Below are positions 47,054-62,190 of a DNA stretch of 64,000 nucleotides, one piece after another; the first letter of the stretch is position 1, and each line of letters opens with the position of its first letter. A model generated the notes under the pieces. The model searched no databases. It saw nothing but the letters and a program-made list of their open reading frames with translations, and was not told the origin of the DNA. Source of the DNA: Promethearchaeota archaeon (GTDB lineage: Archaea > Asgardarchaeota > Lokiarchaeia > Sigyniarchaeales > SOKP01). The translations under genes were made by a program, and so were the position numbers. Where the stretch lies: positions 14,744 to 78,743 of the forward strand of contig JAHPZE010000019.1 in NCBI GenBank assembly GCA_019058365.1. Direction: 5' to 3'.

Positions 47054-47242
47054 TTGAGTGAAAATTTTATCATGAGTGATATCCAAAAAAGAATAAATAG
47101 ATTAGAGCTCTCGATTAATCTTTTGGAAGATCATTTATATAAATACGGTCATCTCATACAACCAAGACCACTTAGGTTTATAAGAAACCAAATAAACCAT
47201 TATAAACGGGAACTCCAGATAAGGAAAGACTATCCTTCTTAA
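47054..47242 (+). CDS. Small coiled-coil hypothetical protein
   Basis: 62-aa ORF (ATG 47072 is an alternative start) with a heptad pattern, in an otherwise empty gap. Confidence 0.55.
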   Translation: MSENFIMSDIQKRINRLELSINLLEDHLYKYGHLIQPRPLRFIRNQINHYKRELQIRKDYPS

Positions 47243-48881: not shown

Positions 48882-50060
48882 ATTAAATTAGAATTTTCTG
48901 AGAGAGTAAAAAGACTCCCAAAATATATTTTTGTAGAAATTGAACAATTATTATCAGAAAAAAGAAAGGAAGGCATTGATTTAATTCCTCTTGGTATTGG
49001 AGATCCTGATTTATCTACTCCTGAATTAATCATTAATGAATTAATAAGACAGGTGAAAATCCCTAAGAATCATAATTATCCCGCGAGTATGGGCGAAGAA
49101 GATTTTAGAGAAGCAGTAGCAAGATGGTATAAGGTTAGATTTAATGTGGATTTGGATCCAAAGGACGAAATTTCAAATGTGATTGGAGGGAAAGAAGGTG
49201 TTGCAAACATTGCAAGAGCATTTATTAATCCCGGAGATATTGTTCTTTGTCCAAATCCAGGATATCCAGTTTATGAAAATGGCGCAACAAAATTGTGTGA
49301 TGCAGAACCATTTTCAATGCCTCTGTTAAGAGAGAATCAGTTCTTGCCTGAATTAGATACAATTGATAAAAAAGTTCTTAAAAAAGCTAAATTAATGTAT
49401 TTAAATTACCCGAATAACCCTACTGGTGCAATTGCTTCGAAGGAATTCTTAAAAAAAGCAGTAGATTACGCTGAAGATTATAATTTTTTTATTGTTCATG
49501 ATAATCCTTATTCAGAGTTTACTTTTGGGGATTATATTGCTCCATCGATATTACAAATAGATCAAAACCATGTTGAGATTAATAGTGCATCTAAAATGTT
49601 TAATATGACAGGATTTAGATGTGGTTGGGTTGCTGGTAATAGAGATCTTATTAAAGGATTAAGAAATATTAAATCGCAAATTGATTCTGGCTGCCCAAAG
49701 TTTATACAGAGAGCGGTAAGTAAAGGATTAGATGAATATCTTTCAAATAAAAAACCAGATATTGTACAAAAAACAGTTGATATATATGAAAAACGCAGAG
49801 ATATCCTTATTAAGGGTCTGAATGATATTGGCTGGAAAACAGACAAACCCAAGGCAACATTTTATGTCTGGACTCAAATTCCTGAAAAGTATAGAGATTT
49901 CGGATGTATGGAATTTGTAAAAAAATTAATTAATAATGGAGTAGTAATTACTCCAGGAATAGGTTTTGGTCAATATGGAGAAGGATTTGTTAGATTTGCT
50001 TTAACCCAACCAGAAGACCGAATATATGAAGCAATAGAAAGAATTAATCTAATAATCTAG
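48882..50060 (+). CDS. dapL: LL-diaminopimelate aminotransferase-like PLP class I/II aminotransferase
   Basis: Upstream extension FSERVKRLPKYIF...LGIGDPD is in frame; GGKEG, LNYPNNPTG, DNPYSE, SASKMFNMTGFRCG and PGIGFG..GEGFVR. Start placed at ATT 48882, since there is an in-frame TAA at 48879. Confidence 0.82.
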   Translation: MKLEFSERVKRLPKYIFVEIEQLLSEKRKEGIDLIPLGIGDPDLSTPELIINELIRQVKIPKNHNYPASMGEEDFREAVARWYKVRFNVDLDPKDEISNVIGGKEGVANIARAFINPGDIVLCPNPGYPVYENGATKLCDAEPFSMPLLRENQFLPELDTIDKKVLKKAKLMYLNYPNNPTGAIASKEFLKKAVDYAEDYNFFIVHDNPYSEFTFGDYIAPSILQIDQNHVEINSASKMFNMTGFRCGWVAGNRDLIKGLRNIKSQIDSGCPKFIQRAVSKGLDEYLSNKKPDIVQKTVDIYEKRRDILIKGLNDIGWKTDKPKATFYVWTQIPEKYRDFGCMEFVKKLINNGVVITPGIGFGQYGEGFVRFALTQPEDRIYEAIERINLII

Positions 50061-50111: not shown

Positions 50112-50291
50112 CTACCCCAGTTTTTTACTCATCTTTATCCTCAATGCTTTCAATCTTTTCTCATCTTCAGCCTCAAGGCTTTCTGAAAATTCATTTGGGA
50201 CTTTTAATGAAATCATAACTGGAGCGGTATAAGAATCCCAATCTTTATAATAATCTAATATCAGATCCATTTTATCTGATTCTTTTTCCAG
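50112..50291 (-). CDS. 59-aa small protein (CTG start; ATG 50270 gives 52 aa), missed by the ORF track
   Basis: GGAGGTGA RBS (50298-50305) lies 6 nt before CTG; (M)EKESDKMDLILDYYKDWDSYTAPVMISLKVPNEFSESLEAEDEKRLKALRIKMSKKLG*. Confidence 0.7.
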   Translation of the reverse strand: MEKESDKMDLILDYYKDWDSYTAPVMISLKVPNEFSESLEAEDEKRLKALRIKMSKKLG

Positions 50292-50313
50292 CTTTTTTCA
50301 CCTCCTATTTTAT

Positions 50314-50504
50314 TTGAATCCTTCACTGGGAGACTTAAATCTGATATTGACCTATTTCAAATAAGATTCAATGAGATGTAATGTTAAAAGAGAACAAATC
50401 AAAAAAAATTATTAGAAAAAGGTCAAGAATTTTGATTTATTCTCTCTTAATACCATGGATTAAAGGGAATACTGTAGTATGTATCCTATACCAATCCATA
50501 GTAT
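50314..50504 (-). ncRNA. Putative structured leader/ncRNA (three stems plus kissing loop)
   Basis: Stems 50504-50493/50461-50450, 50450-50430/50404-50384 and 50371-50363/50322-50314. Plus-strand A-C mismatches become G-U pairs on the minus strand. Loops carry the complementary 7-mers UUGACCU and AGGUCAA. Confidence 0.6.
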
Positions 50505-50544
50505 ATTGTGAAAAACTCATTATTTAAATTAAGTTAGAATCACC

Positions 50545-50560
50545 TTATAAATCTTCCCAT
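50545..50560 (-). promoter_or_regulatory. BRE/TATA-like promoter for the structured leader
   Basis: Minus strand reads GGGAAGATTTATAA, matching the AAGATTTATA pattern at other intergenic sites; predicts a TSS near 50520. Confidence 0.45.
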
Positions 50561-52308: not shown

Positions 52309-55300
52309 TTGTGTTGGGCGATGATATCAGAAAATAGCAACAATTCACAAGAACGGATAAGGAAGGCCACAGAAGTTCTCCAGAAATTCTGGTGGTTCTC
52401 GTTTTTTTTAATCATTGCTCCCTTAATTGTAGGAATTGTATTTTTTTCAATTTTGAATTTCGCGGGAGTAGGTTTATTTATTGCTTTATCTCTATCAGTA
52501 GTAAGTTTTATGTTCGCTTTGCTTTTTTTCTATAAAGCCTTTGATAAATATAGAGATAATCCATTTTTTCTAAATAAAAAGAATAATCTCATTGCACGAA
52601 TTCATATCCTTTTTCTGATTTCTATATTATCATTTATTTCAACTCCTATTTTTATACTTATTTCCCCATTTGACTCATTTTATCATCTTCCAGTTATAAG
52701 TTATGCAATCCTTTACAATATTGTCTATTATTATTATTACTTCCAACCAATAGACTTTTTTGACTTGTCTGAAGAGGAATTCAAACATGCAGGTAGTTTT
52801 GAGTTAATTGCTAAGCAACCTTACAACTTTTTTGTTGTTATTAATCACATCGTTCAAATTATTTTTTTAATTTTTACTGCTTATACTAACTTTTCTTGGC
52901 TTTTTGCTCTTATAACAAACTTAGTCTTTTATTTCATCACATTAACAAGAACTAAAAACCAAATTAAAGTAATCAATGAATCAATAGTTAAAAAAAGCCC
53001 AATTTTGAAAGAATTAACGTCTTTTAAACGACGTTTTGTAGTTTCTATAATTAGTCTAATTTTTGTTTTATTAATTCAAATGCCCTTTGTTATTATTATC
53101 ATATTCAGTCTATCAGGAATTCAGTATTCGAGCTTAGATCTGATAAACAATTCCTTTTTAACAATAATATTCATCTTGTTCTATTTTAAATCTAAGTTTT
53201 ATGTAGATTACTACTATGGTTCAAAACTCGATCTTTATGATAAGCCTAGCAAAATTGAAAAATCAGAGGAAACTTACTCATTGTTAAGTACTAAATATCA
53301 AAAGTACAATTCTTATATATCTATATTTTTAATTCTCTTAATTACATCATTCTCTTTTTTGATTCAAATACCCTTATTAATCTTAATTATTCTTCCATTC
53401 ATTTATATACTTCTTCATTATGAGCAGAAGTATGACCTCTGTTCAAAAAAATATAATAAAATCGTAATTTTATTAAATTCTATTGCTCTTTTAACATACA
53501 TCTCTTTTGGGATAATCCCACCTATAATAGAGACCGTATTATTAAATTTTATGGTGTTTTGTATTTTTTTATATGCTGTTTTGCAGGTATTTGTTAAATT
53601 GGAATATTATACTAAAGAAAATGTTATTATAATTCAAAATTTACTTGCTGTTGCTAGTTTTACTTTATTAGTATATACATTCTTTCCGATTATTATTGTT
53701 GAATATACCGCTTATACAACAGACCCTTTTTTAATTCTCATTTCAAATATTCTCTTGCATTCATTAATTATTTCGGTGATCCTTTTAATCTCTCAATATG
53801 TTTTAGGGGTAAGATACTTTTACAGTAAATCCCCGAAGCTATTCAGAATCGTTGTTTTAATAAATAGTTTTTTAATCGAATTATTTATTTTTACTTTTAT
53901 ATTATTCAGTAACTATTTTTTAATCGATTTAATTCCTTTTCTACAAGGAATAATAATAACATTTGTACTATTTCCCATTTTTTTCATTTTTTTTCTTTAC
54001 ATAAATTATGGCTTACATCTGTTTCCCTTAGAATACTTCTTGAAATTATGCTATTTCACGCTCTGGATAGTTTTAATTGATTTTTTTATATCCATATTCA
54101 TAATATCTCTATTTACTACCTACTATATTATAATACCAATCGATTGCATTATTACTTCTATTTTTTATTACTTTTTATCAAAGTTCGGGTTAACATTGGA
54201 AAGAGTAGATGAACTCAAATTTAAAAAACACGTTAAAATCAATTCTTATTTAATAACAGTTGAACTATTTTCTCTATTTAATTTAATGTTTTTTGGCGCT
54301 TTTCAAGCGCTATCGTTATTTGAGAATATAATGTATTCAACATATTTATCATTAGCTTTAGTCTGTATAATAATTAATCTATTTTCGAAAAAAGAGATTT
54401 TTTCTGAAGATCTTTATATAAAATTAAACACGTTTATTCTGCTATATACTTCAGTAATAGCGTTTTACTATTTTTTGTTGCTAACACTTGATAATTTTTA
54501 TGTTTTTATAATTCCTCTCATGGTTTTTAACATAATCATTTTCATACCAATTTTATATTTAAGAAAGAAAAAACTATACCCTCAACTTATCTCTAAATCT
54601 ATAAGAATAAATAGTATTTTATTAGCAATTACAATATCTTTAATTCCAACAATCACAAGTTTAGAATTATACTTTTTAGGTTTATATTTTGATTTAATAT
54701 TCTTATTAATGACAACAATTAATTTTACTTTGTATATTTTATTACTAATTTTTGCAATCAGCTACCAGATATTAAAAAAAATCAATAGTGATGGAAACCA
54801 AACAAATTATTCTCTGAAATTACAGGTACTCATAACAGTTTGTATTAGCTTTACAACAATATTTTATTATTCATTTTTCTTACTAATCGGCACCTTATAT
54901 TATTATATTATCTTACCTCCAATTTTTACTTCTTGCTTCCTATACATCCCTCTCTTTTTGTCTTATAAGAGATCGATTTTCAATATTGAACATATAAAAA
55001 GAGCAATCATTTTAAATACAATAATTCTAGCAGGGTTATTCACTTCAATTCCAGTAGTAATTGGTCTGAATTTATTCTGGTTAGGTTTTATTTTTGATTT
55101 CAATATTTTTGTATTTAATATTTTCAATTCTTCCACATATATTTTCTATGCTTTTTTATTGATTCTTATAAATTTATCAAGAACGCTTAAGATCAAGGAA
55201 AAATATATTTCAAATTTAAATCAACTTAAAATTGTTGTCTTATTTAGTGTTTCTATTACAACTATCTTCTTTTATCCCTTCTTCTTATTAATCAATACTT

Positions 55301-58300
55301 TATATTATATTGTCATACCTTCAATTCTTACTTCCTGCTTCCTTTATATCCTTTTATATTATTCATATAAAACTGCAATTTTCAAAATTGAACATATAAA
55401 AAGAGTAATCATTATAAATACGATAATTCTTACAGGATTATTTACTTCGATTCCAGTACTAATTGGTTTAAATTTATTTTTATTAGGTATGGTTTTTAAT
55501 TTCAATATTTTTGTATTAAATATTTTAAATTCTTCTATATATATCTTCTATGCTTTTTTATTGATTCTAATTAATTTATCAAAAAAGCTTAAGATCAAGG
55601 ATAAATTCATTTCAAGTTTAAATCAACTTAAAATTATTATTTTATTTACTATTTCTATTACAACCATCTTCTGTTATCCATTTTTCCTATTAATCAATAC
55701 TCTTTATGGAATATTCCTACCAATAATTGCATTACTTTTTTCTTGGTTCTTCCTTTTTTATTATTCCTACAAGCAAGAATATTTCAATTTAGAATTTGTT
55801 AAAAAATTAACAATATATAATTTTATTATCTTCTCCTGTTTGATTATTTCTTTACCAACGATTATAGGGTTAGAATTAACGAGAATTGGATTAACAGCAA
55901 ACATAAAATTAATAATTACTGTAACCTTATTCCTATTTTTTAGTTTTCTAAAGATTTCCGAAGGCATAAGTGTTAAAATTATATTGAAAGAGAAATACAT
56001 TAAACAATTCAAATTGTCAGAGTTAATTTCATGGTTTTTATTTACACTGTTTATCTCTTATTATATAGCATCGACTTTTATTGTAGAATTAGTTTTTACC
56101 CCAATAACATCTCTTATTTTAGCTTGTAGTTTCTTAACTTTCTTTATTTTGAATATATATACAGTAGAATTGATGTCTAATTATCTCCCCGATTATCCAA
56201 ATATTAAATATTTTAAAGATCTAGGACTCTATGGGATAATAATATCAATCTCATTCGTTTTTACATTTTTAGGACTTACAACAGGGCTTTTTTCTTTTCT
56301 TATCTGGTGGCCCACAATATTAGGCATTTCATTCTTAATTGGCTTCTTTCTTGTGATTTTTATTATATTCCTAAACGTATGTGATAAACAATTTCAACTG
56401 TCACAAACAAAAATTGTTTCCAAGTTATTATCATGGTTAACTGTAAAGATAATCATTAGTCTTTCGATCATATCACTTATTGAATTTTTCGGATTTCTCT
56501 TATCTATTATTAATAAAGTCTTTTTGTTTTCCTTAACGTTCACGTTTTTAACACCTATAAGCCTTTATATATTGGAGAATTTGAGGTTTATTTCATCTAA
56601 AAAGCAAATGCTATTGAAAAAAATCACTTTAACAATATTTATTGTATCGATATTGATTTTATACATAGAATTTCTTTATTCATTAATATCTGTAATTCCT
56701 ATCTTTTATTTTATTCCTTTTATTCAAATAAGTGCTATCATTGCCAATTTAATCTTGTTTTTATATTATTATAGTATAAGATTTAACAAAATAATAGAAA
56801 TAAAATCTGTTTTTGAATTTTATAAAATTTATTTCCTATCCTTTTTATTATTTTTAAGTTTACTTTATTTTAACTCAGAGTCTTCAATTTTCCTTATATT
56901 AATATCCTATTTGCTCATCCTTTCTAAGAGGAGTACCATCCCCTTTTTTCGGTTTCTTTCATACTTTTTACTGAGTTATTTTACCTTCCTCGAAATTATT
57001 GTTATTCTCAGTTTTTATAACGTTATAATAGGCTTTGATATAGCATTAACAGGTATTTTCATTATTATTTATCTCTTATCTTTATGTGGGGTATTAGTAT
57101 TCACCATTTTGCTAAATATAAAGAAAAATAATACTTTAGAAAAATTTTATCTATATTCTGTCATTTCTCTTCTATCTTTTGTTACATTGATGATATTTAC
57201 TAATATATTGCTTCTTTATAACCTAACAATATCACTTTTCCTAGAATTGCTATTTTTAGGAATTTTCTTCTATCACCAGAAAGATGAGCGATATAAATGG
57301 TTTATCAAACCATGTGTAATTTTGTTCATATTTGATATTATTAGCTTTCTATCATACTCCTGGCTTTTTAATAACCAAGTCTTTGCAGATTACAATTCGA
57401 TTCTAACTTTTACTATTACAATGACTGTCACTGGATTTGGGTTTATCCTATTGTATAATAGTTCACCAGCAAGATTCAGAAAAAGATCTTTTTATATTGT
57501 ATTGATTTCAATTATAATCTCATTTCCTACTTTCTTATATTTTATTATTATTGCTTCTTTAATGATGCCTCTATTTTCCTTAGTCCCATTAATATTTGCG
57601 ATTGATATTGGCGTTCTTATATTTTATTTATCTATTGGGATTTATCAATGGAAGATATCCATGGCAATTTGGAAATCTGGATGGTATGCTTGGAATCTAT
57701 TACCTTTTGTTAACTTTATTATCATTTATCAAAGTCTCACCGGAATAGATATTTTTACAAACTCATTGAGATTTGGAGCATTTGATGCTAGTGGGTCATT
57801 TATTTTATCTATAATAATCTGCTCGTTATTTTTCTTTCCTGTTGTGTATACCAAAATCAAGAAGAATTTCTCTACAATAGTTTTTATTGTTTGGGGTGAG
57901 AGTTTATTCTTACTTTATTGGGTTAGCCTAAATTTATTTGTATCGGATATTTTGTTAAGAAATTTTTCTTTTATTTTGTTTTCAGTCGTTTTATTGATGC
58001 CATTATTAGCGATATTTAAATACTGGAAAATTATTTCAATTCTTTGGGTATTCCCTCTAACGATTATTAACGTTACATTTCTATTTTTCTATTTGTTATC
58101 AATTGGGGTCTCATTAGAGATGACTGTTTCACTTGATATTTTAGTGATAGGGTTATTTCTAATAGTTTACTCGTTTTTTCCAAATATTAGATCAATTGGG
58201 GTTGTTTTAATAAGTGGATATGTCGTTACTTTATTAGGTATTTTCTTGACAATCTATTTCATTCTTTACTTAATTATTTTGAATCCAATTTTTTCACTAA

Positions 58301-61300
58301 ATATTAGTTTTCTCGTAATTGGTTTCAGTCTTTTTTCCTCTAAATATGTTGAAGTTCCAAAAAGACTTATCGATTTGTGTCTTTCATGGATTCTAATTCT
58401 CAACCTTTCATGGTTTACCTTTAATACGTTCAATCTATTTCCGGGGCTACTGATATCTGGTTTATCATTAGCATTAACCGTATTTGGATGTTCTTTATTT
58501 ATATTTAATCGCTATAAAATGAAAATGCGTATTAATAAGATAATTCCCTTTTTAATAGTGGCATTTGGAACATCTTCCTCAATTACATCCTTAAGTTATA
58601 TTATATTTAATGCAACACCGGGTATTTTAATTTCTATGTTTTCTTCTGTGTTTATTATATTCCTTTACTTCATTTTTGTTGAATATCGTTATATTCTCTG
58701 GTTTATTATTCCAATTCCTATCACAACACCTATATTAGAAGTTCTACTGAGATTTGAAGTAATAAAACCTTTCTGGCTTTTAACTTGGGCCATGATTTAC
58801 CTTTTTACTTTTCAAATTTTAATTAACTTATTTAAAAATACAGTAAAGGAAGAACCACCAGAAATAAAAAATAGTATATTAAAGTTTTATAAAGATAAAG
58901 ATCAATTAAGATGGCTTAATCTTACATGCTTCATTCTTAATTCAATGTTTTCTTCCATTTTCTTCGCAATTATTATTCCATATTTAATGCCATATTTGGT
59001 ATTTTCTCAAATTTTATTTGTTTACCAAATCTCTGATTTTCTAATATTATGGCCAATTTTATTTTTGCTTTGTATGAAATATATAGAAAAATCGGAGATA
59101 GATATAAAGATAAAAGATATCTTACGTTATTTTAGCAAAATTAGTGCTATTTTCTATCTTTTAATTCCAATAGCGCTAGGCATCAATATTTTTCTTTATA
59201 TGATTTTAATTAATTCGAACCTTGTAATTACTATTTATATTGTATTGCTAGTGATAAGTGGATTAGTATTTATTGAAGTATCTTTCATAGACCGGAATCT
59301 CTTATATTTATTATTTAATTCATCCCGGAATAAACTAACTTTATGGTCTTGGGTTATTTTTAGTAATATTTTGTCTCTATTCCTCTTTTTATTTCATTTA
59401 AACTTTTTCCTGTTAGTTTTAACAATCTCACTTTTAGGACTTATTTCTCTTTATTTCTTATCTTACTTAGATATTTCTAAACAAATAATTACCAAAGGTC
59501 GTTTAATACTCATTTATAATTCATTTATTTGGAGTTCTTTTTATCTAGCATCCTTAATCTCTGATGGATTGATACTAATCTTCGAAGAGTTAATAGGATT
59601 TGCCTACTATTCGTTGTTATTCCAAAATTCATCATTTATATTATATATTTTAAGCGTTTCCTTCGTTAGAATTGAAAAAGATATAAAAAATAAAATCGAA
59701 TTTTCTCTTTTCATTATATTCCAGGGATTGTTAGCAATTAATTTAATATACATCTTCATATTAAATGGTATTTTAAACTTTTTCTCAGTTAATTTAGTCA
59801 TTTTTATAGAGGTATGTCTTTCATTCATATCTGTTTACTATTTCAATTTTATATTAGCTGAGAAGAAATATCCAAATTTTCTGCTAAAAATGCATTCAAT
59901 TTTGTTTTTGATATTGTATTGTGAAATAAGCATTATAATTTATGGTTTATTAAGCGGAGTAATAGGAATTTATGAAAGTATTATAGTATCTCTTTCTGTA
60001 TTATTGATTTTCACATCACTAGATATTTATTCAATTAAAAAGATAAAGGAGGGCTATGCACGTTTAATTCATACTATTAGCTTTTTAACAATTTCAGTGT
60101 TAACGTTTCTAATCTTATATGATTATATCTCTCAATATCCATTCTTTCTTGGTTTAGGAATTTTTATTTTTATGATAATGCAATTTTATACTAATTATTC
60201 TCTCTTTAAGGCATTAGAGGATTTGTACCCAAAAGGTCAAGTTTCTCTTAAAAAAGACCAAAAAGTTATTCAAAAATTAATCGGAACAGTTTTTTATGCT
60301 ACAATATGCATATTCTTAAGTCAAATTTTAACTTTGTATGGAGTCGAATTACAATTGATCCTTTTAATTTTAAGTCTCGTAATCCATGGATTAATGATAA
60401 TAGACAAATTTTTACTGAAATTTTTAGGAAAAATCACTAATTATATTCAAGTAATCTCTTGGATCTCTATTATGATATTTACATCTACCTATTTAATATG
60501 GGTGTATAGCACCTATTTTGCCGCTTTCTTTTATACAGTTATTCCCATCATCGTTATTATCCTACTACTTGAGTTTGCTTACCTTATGAATTTGTTAGCT
60601 TTTTGGAGTTTTGTTGCCTTCAATAAAGAGAAGATAAGGTTTTTACTGATATTAATATCATATCTCAATTTTATAACTTGGCCTTTATATTTTGCTTCTT
60701 TGAATCTATTACACACCCTTAATTTAACACTCGCGTCTTTTTTCATCATGTTTTTGATAACCTTAATTGATAATATTTTAAGGCAAGATTTCCGAAAATC
60801 GTTAAGATCGTTCTCGATTCTAATAATTGGAGGATTATTGTCCATTGATTCTTTCTTATTGCTGAATTCTCTTCCGAATTTCAATATTTTTTTGAATTTA
60901 AGTATTTCTTCCTTAGTTATACATGTATTAATGTTAATAGATAGCTATTTGTTGAAATTTATCGGGAAATTTACTAACTCCATTAAGGTGTTTTCATACA
61001 TCTTAATTATGATTTTTACATCAGTATATTTAACGTGGCTTTATAGTACCTTTTATTTAACTTTCTCTCCTACTGTGATTCCATTCATTATTATTATCCT
61101 TATCCTTGAATTTGCCTATCTTTTCAAAGTATCGGCATCTTGGAAATTAGTTGCGTCCAATAAAGAAAGAATTAAATTTTATTTGATTATATCAACATAT
61201 CTTAATTTTATAACTTGGCCTTTATATTTTGCTTCTTTAAATCCATTTTACGTTCTTAATTTAGTGTTAGCTTCTTTTTTCATTATGTTTTTCTTATCTT

Positions 61301-62190
61301 TAATTGATACAGTTTTAAAGGTAGATTTCCGAAAATCCTTGAGATCTTACTCATTTCTCATAATTGGAGGTTTAATATCAATTGATCTCTTTTTTATGTT
61401 CCAATTTATATTGGTACTTGATATTTTCCTAAATTTAAGTGTCTCTTCTTTAGTTTTTGTAATTTTCTTAGGGATAAAAATAAAACCATTCAAGGGACAC
61501 TCAGCTGGAGCTTTTATATTTTGGATTGTTATTTTTCTACTCTTAAGTTCAATTATATACCATATATCATTATCTTTTATTATTACAGGAATATTTTTTG
61601 CCTTTACTGTTTTAATTTATCCCTTTGTTTTCCTTTTAGAAGAACTAAGAGAACTTATTAATAAAATTACTGAATTATTAACAAGGATCTTTACACATCT
61701 CAGAATTTTAATTAAGAATATGTTTATTAGAATTTTCATTTTATGTAAGAGGTATTTTAAATTCCTTTGGATTCTTATTAGTGCGGGTATAGCAACATTC
61801 ATAGGAATCCTATTTTCTGACATTATTTTTGGTTTATTAAATCCATACCATTCCATTATTCTAATATTTCCTATTTTTGGGATAATTTATTCTCTTAAAC
61901 CTTCTGAAAAAACTGAAGACGTTGATATCATGTTTAGACGTAGAATGTTTCGTTTAATTATTAGCTGGAGTAGTATTATCATAATTTTATTTTCTTTTCT
62001 CGACCCCGTTTACTATGTTTTCACTACCTGGATATCAATTTGGATTTTGGGAGCAATTTTATTGCCTTATATCATTTTCAAGGAGAAAAATGAAAATATT
62101 TCAATTAAGTGGAGGTTTTATACATTAATAGTATTGATATCAATGCTAGTTTTATTTGGAATTATTGTTGCTGTCCAATTCTATCTATAG
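52309..62190 (+). CDS. Giant (3293-aa) polytopic membrane protein of unknown function
   Basis: 9.9-kb uninterrupted ORF in very AT-rich DNA; continuous hydrophobic helices with short Lys-rich loops; ATG 52321 is the likely start. Confidence 0.9.
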   Translation: MCWAMISENSNNSQERIRKATEVLQKFWWFSFFLIIAPLIVGIVFFSILNFAGVGLFIALSLSVVSFMFALLFFYKAFDKYRDNPFFLNKKNNLIARIHILFLISILSFISTPIFILISPFDSFYHLPVISYAILYNIVYYYYYFQPIDFFDLSEEEFKHAGSFELIAKQPYNFFVVINHIVQIIFLIFTAYTNFSWLFALITNLVFYFITLTRTKNQIKVINESIVKKSPILKELTSFKRRFVVSIISLIFVLLIQMPFVIIIIFSLSGIQYSSLDLINNSFLTIIFILFYFKSKFYVDYYYGSKLDLYDKPSKIEKSEETYSLLSTKYQKYNSYISIFLILLITSFSFLIQIPLLILIILPFIYILLHYEQKYDLCSKKYNKIVILLNSIALLTYISFGIIPPIIETVLLNFMVFCIFLYAVLQVFVKLEYYTKENVIIIQNLLAVASFTLLVYTFFPIIIVEYTAYTTDPFLILISNILLHSLIISVILLISQYVLGVRYFYSKSPKLFRIVVLINSFLIELFIFTFILFSNYFLIDLIPFLQGIIITFVLFPIFFIFFLYINYGLHLFPLEYFLKLCYFTLWIVLIDFFISIFIISLFTTYYIIIPIDCIITSIFYYFLSKFGLTLERVDELKFKKHVKINSYLITVELFSLFNLMFFGAFQALSLFENIMYSTYLSLALVCIIINLFSKKEIFSEDLYIKLNTFILLYTSVIAFYYFLLLTLDNFYVFIIPLMVFNIIIFIPILYLRKKKLYPQLISKSIRINSILLAITISLIPTITSLELYFLGLYFDLIFLLMTTINFTLYILLLIFAISYQILKKINSDGNQTNYSLKLQVLITVCISFTTIFYYSFFLLIGTLYYYIILPPIFTSCFLYIPLFLSYKRSIFNIEHIKRAIILNTIILAGLFTSIPVVIGLNLFWLGFIFDFNIFVFNIFNSSTYIFYAFLLILINLSRTLKIKEKYISNLNQLKIVVLFSVSITTIFFYPFFLLINTLYYIVIPSILTSCFLYILLYYSYKTAIFKIEHIKRVIIINTIILTGLFTSIPVLIGLNLFLLGMVFNFNIFVLNILNSSIYIFYAFLLILINLSKKLKIKDKFISSLNQLKIIILFTISITTIFCYPFFLLINTLYGIFLPIIALLFSWFFLFYYSYKQEYFNLEFVKKLTIYNFIIFSCLIISLPTIIGLELTRIGLTANIKLIITVTLFLFFSFLKISEGISVKIILKEKYIKQFKLSELISWFLFTLFISYYIASTFIVELVFTPITSLILACSFLTFFILNIYTVELMSNYLPDYPNIKYFKDLGLYGIIISISFVFTFLGLTTGLFSFLIWWPTILGISFLIGFFLVIFIIFLNVCDKQFQLSQTKIVSKLLSWLTVKIIISLSIISLIEFFGFLLSIINKVFLFSLTFTFLTPISLYILENLRFISSKKQMLLKKITLTIFIVSILILYIEFLYSLISVIPIFYFIPFIQISAIIANLILFLYYYSIRFNKIIEIKSVFEFYKIYFLSFLLFLSLLYFNSESSIFLILISYLLILSKRSTIPFFRFLSYFLLSYFTFLEIIVILSFYNVIIGFDIALTGIFIIIYLLSLCGVLVFTILLNIKKNNTLEKFYLYSVISLLSFVTLMIFTNILLLYNLTISLFLELLFLGIFFYHQKDERYKWFIKPCVILFIFDIISFLSYSWLFNNQVFADYNSILTFTITMTVTGFGFILLYNSSPARFRKRSFYIVLISIIISFPTFLYFIIIASLMMPLFSLVPLIFAIDIGVLIFYLSIGIYQWKISMAIWKSGWYAWNLLPFVNFIIIYQSLTGIDIFTNSLRFGAFDASGSFILSIIICSLFFFPVVYTKIKKNFSTIVFIVWGESLFLLYWVSLNLFVSDILLRNFSFILFSVVLLMPLLAIFKYWKIISILWVFPLTIINVTFLFFYLLSIGVSLEMTVSLDILVIGLFLIVYSFFPNIRSIGVVLISGYVVTLLGIFLTIYFILYLIILNPIFSLNISFLVIGFSLFSSKYVEVPKRLIDLCLSWILILNLSWFTFNTFNLFPGLLISGLSLALTVFGCSLFIFNRYKMKMRINKIIPFLIVAFGTSSSITSLSYIIFNATPGILISMFSSVFIIFLYFIFVEYRYILWFIIPIPITTPILEVLLRFEVIKPFWLLTWAMIYLFTFQILINLFKNTVKEEPPEIKNSILKFYKDKDQLRWLNLTCFILNSMFSSIFFAIIIPYLMPYLVFSQILFVYQISDFLILWPILFLLCMKYIEKSEIDIKIKDILRYFSKISAIFYLLIPIALGINIFLYMILINSNLVITIYIVLLVISGLVFIEVSFIDRNLLYLLFNSSRNKLTLWSWVIFSNILSLFLFLFHLNFFLLVLTISLLGLISLYFLSYLDISKQIITKGRLILIYNSFIWSSFYLASLISDGLILIFEELIGFAYYSLLFQNSSFILYILSVSFVRIEKDIKNKIEFSLFIIFQGLLAINLIYIFILNGILNFFSVNLVIFIEVCLSFISVYYFNFILAEKKYPNFLLKMHSILFLILYCEISIIIYGLLSGVIGIYESIIVSLSVLLIFTSLDIYSIKKIKEGYARLIHTISFLTISVLTFLILYDYISQYPFFLGLGIFIFMIMQFYTNYSLFKALEDLYPKGQVSLKKDQKVIQKLIGTVFYATICIFLSQILTLYGVELQLILLILSLVIHGLMIIDKFLLKFLGKITNYIQVISWISIMIFTSTYLIWVYSTYFAAFFYTVIPIIVIILLLEFAYLMNLLAFWSFVAFNKEKIRFLLILISYLNFITWPLYFASLNLLHTLNLTLASFFIMFLITLIDNILRQDFRKSLRSFSILIIGGLLSIDSFLLLNSLPNFNIFLNLSISSLVIHVLMLIDSYLLKFIGKFTNSIKVFSYILIMIFTSVYLTWLYSTFYLTFSPTVIPFIIIILILEFAYLFKVSASWKLVASNKERIKFYLIISTYLNFITWPLYFASLNPFYVLNLVLASFFIMFFLSLIDTVLKVDFRKSLRSYSFLIIGGLISIDLFFMFQFILVLDIFLNLSVSSLVFVIFLGIKIKPFKGHSAGAFIFWIVIFLLLSSIIYHISLSFIITGIFFAFTVLIYPFVFLLEELRELINKITELLTRIFTHLRILIKNMFIRIFILCKRYFKFLWILISAGIATFIGILFSDIIFGLLNPYHSIILIFPIFGIIYSLKPSEKTEDVDIMFRRRMFRLIISWSSIIIILFSFLDPVYYVFTTWISIWILGAILLPYIIFKEKNENISIKWRFYTLIVLISMLVLFGIIVAVQFYL
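54900..55703 (+). repeat. Intragenic tandem duplication, 402-bp (134-aa) unit
   Basis: attgaacatataaaaagag at 54985 and 55387; IEHIKRAIILNTIILAGLFTSIP versus IEHIKRVIIINTIILTGLFTSIP. Edges approximate. Confidence 0.9.
60370..61443 (+). repeat. Intragenic tandem duplication, 537-bp (179-aa) unit
   Basis: ttataacttggcctttatattttgcttctt at 60671 and 61208; YLNFITWPLYFASLN and DFRKSLRS each occur twice. Edges approximate. Confidence 0.9.

Follow-up and report, generated by a model that had tools for sequence, protein, structure and literature searches.

The gene for a 59-aa protein on the minus strand of the 64,000-nt stretch analyzed here (the window) is preceded by a leader that we take, with somewhat better than even confidence, to be a ribosome-dependent leader-peptide attenuator controlling the small gene in one family of Lokiarchaeia. 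The firmest part of this reading, which we consider very likely, is that a translated upstream ORF (uORF) is coupled to an RNA with two alternative folds. That this copy senses branched-chain amino acids is slightly favored, and we lean to a similar degree toward an output by termination or cleavage, not initiation. An initial annotation had proposed a cis-regulator here. A selected minus-strand leader of about 230 nt is indeed present, but its description as a ligand-binding or noncoding RNA, with a kissing loop and a switch at the ribosome-binding site, was not supported by comparison with homologues.

The locus and its upstream ORF

The leader and the 59-aa gene stand alone as a unit, flanked by a divergent GH4 gene and by a dapL-like aminotransferase gene in convergent orientation, and BLAST finds the element once in the genome. 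By DNA search, about 31 of 36 genomes in the genus carry the element, and a protein profile recovered the small gene in 48/53 for genus g1, in 36/42 for g28, and in g20, with weak matches in five further genera of the family. The GH4/dapL synteny is mostly retained around homologous loci. For comparison, we extracted 83 leaders (80 distinct sequences) from one Lokiarchaeia family, chosen by their RNA core; the uORF was then found in every member, at the same distance from the promoter. These homologues are related, and counts over them are not independent events.

Several features of the neighborhood are recorded in passing. The dapL-like gene (window 48882-50060, plus strand) apparently starts at ATT, and near-cognate starts seem common in the lineage, as 59-aa homologues begin with CTG, TTG, or ACG behind perfect Shine-Dalgarno (SD) sequences. 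A terminator-like hairpin lies on the antisense strand within dapL (49937-49955, minus), and a 62-aa ORF without a Pfam match lies at 47054-47242 (plus). An ORF of 3293 aa (52309-62190, plus) encodes an extremely hydrophobic, multi-pass membrane protein with internal repeats, and it takes the place of GH4 as the divergent neighbor in some relatives.

All features of the leader lie on the minus strand. The TATA-like box of the initial annotation is present at 50551-50544. Its distance to the uORF ATG is 31 to 33 nt in all 27 genus copies examined, which would place the transcription start 2 to 4 nt 5' of that ATG and make the mRNA leaderless. Just 5' of the box is an ATGGG direct repeat (50571-50556), near-invariant in the genus alignment, that may be a BRE or a transcription factor site. 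The repeat is direct in g1 and has its second half inverted in many g28 copies, and it is a candidate regulator site between the divergent promoters.

The initial annotation overlooked a conserved ORF of 27 codons plus TAA in its first 84 nt (50520-50437). This uORF, whose stop lies inside the 5' arm of the hairpin called stem B in the initial annotation, is intact in 83/83 loci at lengths of 23 to 32 aa. Among the 80 distinct sequences, none has an internal stop in the uORF frame, while the other two frames are interrupted in 72 and in all 80; the chance of a stop-free uORF frame is about 0.12 per shuffled sequence. Insertions and deletions come in multiples of three within the uORF and not outside it. 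These frame and indel statistics show that the uORF is under selection for its reading frame.

The peptide starts with a conserved M-x-F-S-x-x-N-T and is of two types: one ends in an invariant K-R-E, reached within the 5' arm of stem B, and the other in V-L just before that arm. In two lineages, the 3' arm of the preceding hairpin (P2) falls in different uORF frames, although in each the uORF stops at stem B (P3) and remains rich in Ile, Val, and Leu. These residues fill 54% of the last eight codons in the K-R-E type, mostly as Ile, and 65% in the V-L type, against 26% in the genome, 33% for shuffled bases, and 2 to 9% in the first twelve uORF codons. The enrichment at the uORF end is thus 2- to 2.5-fold at the GH4-dapL locus. 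Given the two reading frames and the codon bias, stop position and codon class are kept more than the peptide itself. In the source-genome copy, only four of the eight codons that precede K-R-E specify Ile, Val, or Leu, and there is no single-amino-acid run, the weakest codon signal compared with its paralogues. The codons also sit in the 3' arm of P2, where helix structure could conserve them too. If this copy senses an amino acid, Ile or Val is more likely than Leu.

Helices and the two-state fold

The helices of the minus-strand leader are conserved across the 83 loci. The source sequence folds more stably than its shuffled versions (-60.8 kcal/mol, z -5.06, equaled by 0/200 shuffles), and the plus strand gives z -3.13 in the same test. 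We scored covariation on a structure-blind alignment of 77 sequences, and all five measures exceed 500 shuffles and slid controls, a result inflated by relatedness. Duplex energies of cognate against noncognate arms support three helices, P1, P2, and the loop helix.

P1 pairs 50519-50508, which spans the uORF start codon, with 50326-50315. Eight of its 11 pairs have changes on both sides, and its duplex energy is -9.6 kcal/mol for cognate strands, -7.8 for noncognate, and -4.0 for shuffled. This conserved outer helix stands in place of the stem C proposed in the initial annotation, which, with the small hairpin within it, is peculiar to the source genome (57.5% of alignment cells paired, no better than slid controls, and a duplex no more stable than shuffled ones). 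Nor is the switch proposed for stem C near the ribosome-binding site conserved. P2 (50504-50450), a hairpin within the uORF, corresponds to stem A as first drawn (50504-50493/50461-50450, one G-U pair), with energies of -11.4, -8.6, and -3.4 kcal/mol for cognate, noncognate, and shuffled arms; the cognate arm is the better partner in 79/83.

Stem B, or P3, was also correctly identified, with 21 bp, two G-U pairs, and a 25-nt loop. Its conserved part pairs X (50448-50434) with Y1 (50400-50386), with 95.6% of cells paired over 15 pairs, and the two arms covary in paralogues. A ribosome that has reached the uORF end would cover X. The U-rich loop region (50429-50401) contains U4 tracts and the 5' strand (50426-50415) of a competing helix.

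The initial annotation had this loop kiss a second hairpin loop through 7 nt, and the complementarity to 50353-50347 is present. The pairing does covary among homologues, but it is at least 12 bp long and runs into a duplex that excludes stem B. Its 12-bp core uses the downstream strand 50358-50347; 9 of 12 pairs have changes on both sides, 80.9% of cells are paired, and the energies are -11.6 (cognate), -9.0 (noncognate), and -4.4 (shuffled) kcal/mol. The hairpin that would present the second loop (P4) is weak as a conserved kissing partner, being paired in only 60% of cells. Farther downstream, Y2 (50341-50330), an imperfect second copy of Y1, carries the competing duplex on into X. The Y2-X helix is paired in 85% of cells with covariation not above shuffles, because X is nearly invariant. 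Through Y2, the duplex reaches 20 to 30 bp in many homologues (12 to 30 bp overall), and a full Y2 extension is seen in paralogue L106 at -32.6 kcal/mol.

The long duplex and P3 share X, which can pair with Y1 or Y2, and are mutually exclusive. The energy difference between the two states averages -1.6 ± 4.7 kcal/mol and falls within 5 kcal/mol in 57/83 leaders; the most extreme value is that of the source-genome copy, in which the P3 state is favored by 11 kcal/mol. We therefore prefer to see in the covarying "kiss" the core of an alternative fold, whose long duplex a short kiss may nucleate. We found no intrinsic terminator, a GC-rich hairpin followed by poly(U), in the leader.

Downstream of these helices are the SD sequence (50305-50298; six invariant columns among 77 sequences) and the 59-aa ORF (50291-50112), both present as first annotated. 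The CTG start of this ORF is not special, since homologues vary among CTG, TTG, ACG, and ATG.

The 59-aa protein and the paralogous modules

Third codon positions of the 59-aa ORF vary more than the others (0.24 versus 0.15 and 0.11), and this variation and its wide conservation make it a real gene. Its 196 homologues, none with a named function, are hypothetical proteins of Lokiarchaeota/Promethearchaeota; the family consists of small acidic/basic proteins found in Lokiarchaeia-type assemblies only, and 30 representatives span 33 to 114 aa. The protein has no Pfam match, and no function was recovered by homologue search, ESM Atlas, AlphaFold, or a search with the representatives; penicillin-amidase matches of low recognition in ESM Atlas were judged to be chance. 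AlphaFold models one C-terminal helix (pTM 0.34). Within the ORF, the DNA sequence of the D-Y-Y-K-D-W codons varies unusually little, and a short hairpin is possible in the first codons (50255-50285, minus). Past its 3' end, a U-tract (50080-50070), whose T run is conserved in the genus alignment, is likely the terminator on the side of the convergent dapL gene.

A D-x-S...P-[AG]-E-I-x-x-x-D motif is common to related small ORFs, which form tandem arrangements at the GH4-dapL locus. Arrays of two to four such ORFs (45 to 70 aa, with P-[AG]-E-I) are seen in L104, L076, L088, L098, L106, L107, L123, and L124; possible roles are regulators or precursor peptides.

The P3 pattern also matched in genus g18, not at the 59-aa gene but upstream of a bacterial-type leuS, after a Leu-rich ORF. 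A covariance model built from our locus (R1), used to search the source genome and its relatives, found a match directly 5' of the archaeal-type leuS of the source genome (G000:C17:22889-23122 minus, equivalent to L136:1501-1734; E value, 2.2e-5), where the leader peptide ends L-L-A-V-L-L-L-P at the same hairpin. R1 also finds the module at the GH4-dapL locus of g19, g24, g26, g27, and g29, where it precedes the first small ORF; GH4-dapL leaders in other genera are strongly Leu/Val-rich. Altogether, the module lies 5' of leuS in at least 17 genomes, of an FrhB-like gene in 6, and of related microproteins in 5, and nearly all of these copies follow a detected Leu/Val/Ile-rich ORF whose stop adjoins X. 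In all paralogues, the hairpin with its U-rich loop is retained, as is the downstream strand complementary to it, and the P3 arms change jointly.

Some copies deserve separate mention. The source genome has a second, bacterial-type LeuRS gene (G000:C35:276458-279295, plus strand), and no leader ORF or P3 module was seen 5' of it; G063, G086, and G091 carry the module 5' of their bacterial-type leuS. The FrhB-like gene encodes an FrhB/FdhB-domain 4Fe-4S protein (L143, L153, L156, L157, L158, and L140). Its leaders are Ile/Val/Leu-rich, apart from L140, which has no detected leader, and this suggests a role for the gene in branched-chain amino acid metabolism. In G067, the first P3-like hairpin is followed after about 1 kb by a second (C73:12367-12415), which precedes a 49-aa ORF of the small-ORF family.

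In line with the initial annotation, which did not recognize a known family, this RNA matches no Rfam family: scans covering the locus and seven related loci gave nothing near the gathering score. Outside family f1, pattern matches in the 27 genomes searched lacked the hairpin and leader ORF. The module is a new RNA family, confined in the searches made to one Lokiarchaeia family.

Proposed control, alternatives, and significance

In archaea, translation is coupled to transcription, and aCPSF1/FttA is the termination factor. In the attenuator that we propose, a ribosome would load onto the 5' end while the RNA is still being made. If charged Ile/Val/Leu tRNAs are ample, it would complete the uORF and depart, and P3 would fold; folded P3 would keep the U4 tracts single-stranded, so that aCPSF1/FttA could cleave the RNA and terminate transcription. 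When these tRNAs are short, the ribosome would pause on the last codons and cover X, the loop would pair with the emerging downstream strand, and the masked U tracts would permit read-through into the small gene. P1 would afterward close over the start codon of the leader, leaving the decision mainly to the first ribosome.

The U4 tracts of the P3 loop are a candidate aCPSF1/FttA site. The loop region is 55 to 62% U, with a mean of 2.5 to 2.8 U4 tracts from X to the end of Y1 and at least two in 75/83 copies. The source genome encodes an aCPSF1-sized KH/beta-CASP protein by motif match (C40, 638 codons). aCPSF1 requires two U4 tracts, and its Lokiarchaeal orthologue reads such tracts and functions in Methanococcus (PMC8716108); FttA targets nascent RNA that is rich in U, close to the exit channel, and cleaves it (PMC11616081).

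When the nascent transcript extends 45 nt beyond the start of Y1, the loop U tracts are predicted to be 83% unpaired with X free and 46% with X covered. Because covering X lowers U-tract exposure, the sign of control would match the expectation for leuS, namely, read-through on starvation. At equilibrium, the full-length leader is mostly in the long duplex either way (35% versus 29% unpaired), so the model depends on the kinetics assumed in it. On first emergence, the tracts are exposed in both states (89% versus 90%), and cleavage must therefore be slower than about 40 to 50 nt of further transcription. In one salt-marsh metatranscriptome, three short contigs map to the leader, one 98% alike over 50311-50498, which shows presence in an RNA library only. 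If colinear, a contig of this set extends some 40 nt beyond the start codon; the ORF and its neighbors are otherwise uncovered in this single run, to which we attach no weight.

The best-surviving alternative, which we consider unlikely, is that the g1/g28 leader is a retuned or decayed member of the family, whose ORF has ceased to count branched-chain codons and either reports general ribosome flux or undergoes peptide-mediated arrest on a small-molecule signal, as in TnaC or SpeFL. The peptide is unlike the Leu-rich ones of the paralogues, with its M-x-F-S-x-x-N-T start, a Trp in 70/83, and the K-R-E end in one type, and the leader has extra structure in P1 and an elaborate P2. Nevertheless, the C-terminal half is read in two frames and poorly conserved, Trp is absent in 13/83, and the Ile/Val/Leu enrichment persists.

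A shade less probable still is that the same ribosome sensor acts on translation initiation, with the 5' end or Y2 occluding the SD sequence or its spacer. RNAalifold predicts pairing between the 5' end and the SD spacer (92% of cells paired), and Y2 has a UCUCC-like stretch complementary to the invariant SD (also 92% paired). However, neither pairing covaries, the Y2-SD duplex energy equals that of shuffled controls (-2.5 versus -2.4), and blocking the uORF does not shift SD access consistently (up in 13 to 22 and down in 27 to 28 of 83). In addition, the leuS and FrhB-like copies have no SD-like site near the switch, and with none in reach of the leuS copies, SD occlusion is unlikely to be the shared output.

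We consider it improbable that the element is, along the lines of the initial annotation, a kissing-loop RNA binding a ligand or protein, or else an independent RNA, some 210 nt long with P1 as its closing helix, that acts in trans, the uORF having no role in either case. Such an RNA would fit the strong fold, the covarying loop pairing, the closure of the whole unit by P1, and the leader contigs in the metatranscriptome. An incidental ORF is nonetheless hard to sustain across 80 distinct AU-rich sequences at the per-sequence chance given above, and a duplex of 15 to 30 bp is too long for a simple kiss. Invariant columns are mostly in P2, P3, the start codon, and the SD; the conserved bases are paired or coding, not in unpaired pocket positions. 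The paralogues, moreover, trace Leu codons to leuS. Attenuation would itself be expected to release the leader RNA, which could conceivably have a second role.

Least probable, and by our estimate very much so, are two ordinary operon genes, the first encoding the 27-aa peptide as its product, split by a fixed, leaky internal terminator or stabilizing structure: U4 tracts do lie 3' of the uORF stop, and internal aCPSF1 terminators are described as common in archaeal operons (PMC10450193), but the peptide sequence is not conserved across the family, unlike the stop position, codon bias, and two-state fold, and the module transfers between unrelated downstream genes. Three further candidates were rejected. 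A fusion of the uORF to the 59-aa ORF by readthrough or frameshift conflicts with spacings that fall in all three frames. A type I toxin-antitoxin system, brought to mind by the helix that joins the 5' and 3' ends, conflicts with the module's presence before leuS and with a peptide that, in this copy, lacks any hydrophobic stretch of membrane length. IncI repY/repZ pseudoknot activation has similar parts in a different order, and there is no SD link here.

Returning to attenuation, leader-peptide control of this kind is textbook regulation in bacteria. By analogy, our leader would work like a factor-dependent leader-peptide attenuator, belonging neither to the classical class nor to any riboswitch class. 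It shares with classical attenuators a uORF intact throughout the set and predicted from frame statistics to be translated, exclusive helices of which one is overlapped by the ribosome, and, in the leuS paralogues, regulatory codons that match the downstream function. With no intrinsic terminator, it is not of the trpL/leuL/ilvL class. Archaea are not known to have Rho. Close parallels are the Rho-dependent uORF attenuators of enterobacteria, mgtL-mgtA and corL-corA of Salmonella, tnaC, and speFL (PMC12360218), where translation of a short ORF also picks between exclusive helices that leave a pyrimidine-rich factor-loading site open or hidden, with no intrinsic terminator; the access control proposed for our uORF parallels that of Rho by mgtL and corL. 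This leader differs in being archaeal and leaderless, in its candidate factor (the nuclease aCPSF1/FttA, not Rho), and in its candidate site, which lies in the U-rich loop of a hairpin and would be masked by pairing with a strand farther downstream; the sequences are unrelated.

Classical branched-chain attenuators (leuL, ilvL, and ivbL of E. coli, ilvB of Corynebacterium, and the predicted Streptomyces leuS attenuators [PMC1262725]) likewise have Leu/Ile/Val codons before the stop, competing hairpins, and, for the last, a leuS target, but our leader lacks their GC-rich hairpin and poly(U) and would control a microprotein. The LEU element of actinobacterial leuA (PMC1262725) shares a Leu-codon ORF, a pseudoknot or alternative hairpin, a base stem, and the absence of a terminator; its Leu codons pair with the SD, whereas here they lie within P2, the closing stem ends short of the SD, and there is no sequence likeness. 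Mycobacterial leaderless poly-Cys small ORFs (10.1101/834739) are also leaderless sensors at several loci, forming a ribosome-directed regulon, but their output is sequestration of the ribosome-binding site, for which our results were negative, and amino acids and domain of life differ. In the part of the literature covered, we found no tested case of archaeal leader-peptide attenuation. The leuA-Halobacteria RNA motif, reportedly an Rfam family from Weinberg et al. 2017, is said to be a predicted structured leader before a leucine gene in archaea. It has a different lineage and different targets, and our scans matched no Rfam family.

More tentatively, the modules together may form a branched-chain amino acid "ribulon" of Lokiarchaeia, in which a mobile module uses its leaderless leader peptide to gate access of the CPSF73-like nuclease aCPSF1/FttA to a U-rich loop, so that archaea would have ribosome-mediated transcription attenuation, with the microprotein under the same control; we hold this possible rather than probable. 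Eukaryotes have uORF-based amino acid control and CPSF-based premature termination. The present RNA is a new family, supported by covariation, from the prokaryotes most closely related to eukaryotes. The 59-aa microprotein family gains its first functional lead, in that its expression would be tied, with that of LeuRS, to the supply of Ile, Val, and Leu. If the ribulon is real, it would mark this microprotein family as a starvation effector.
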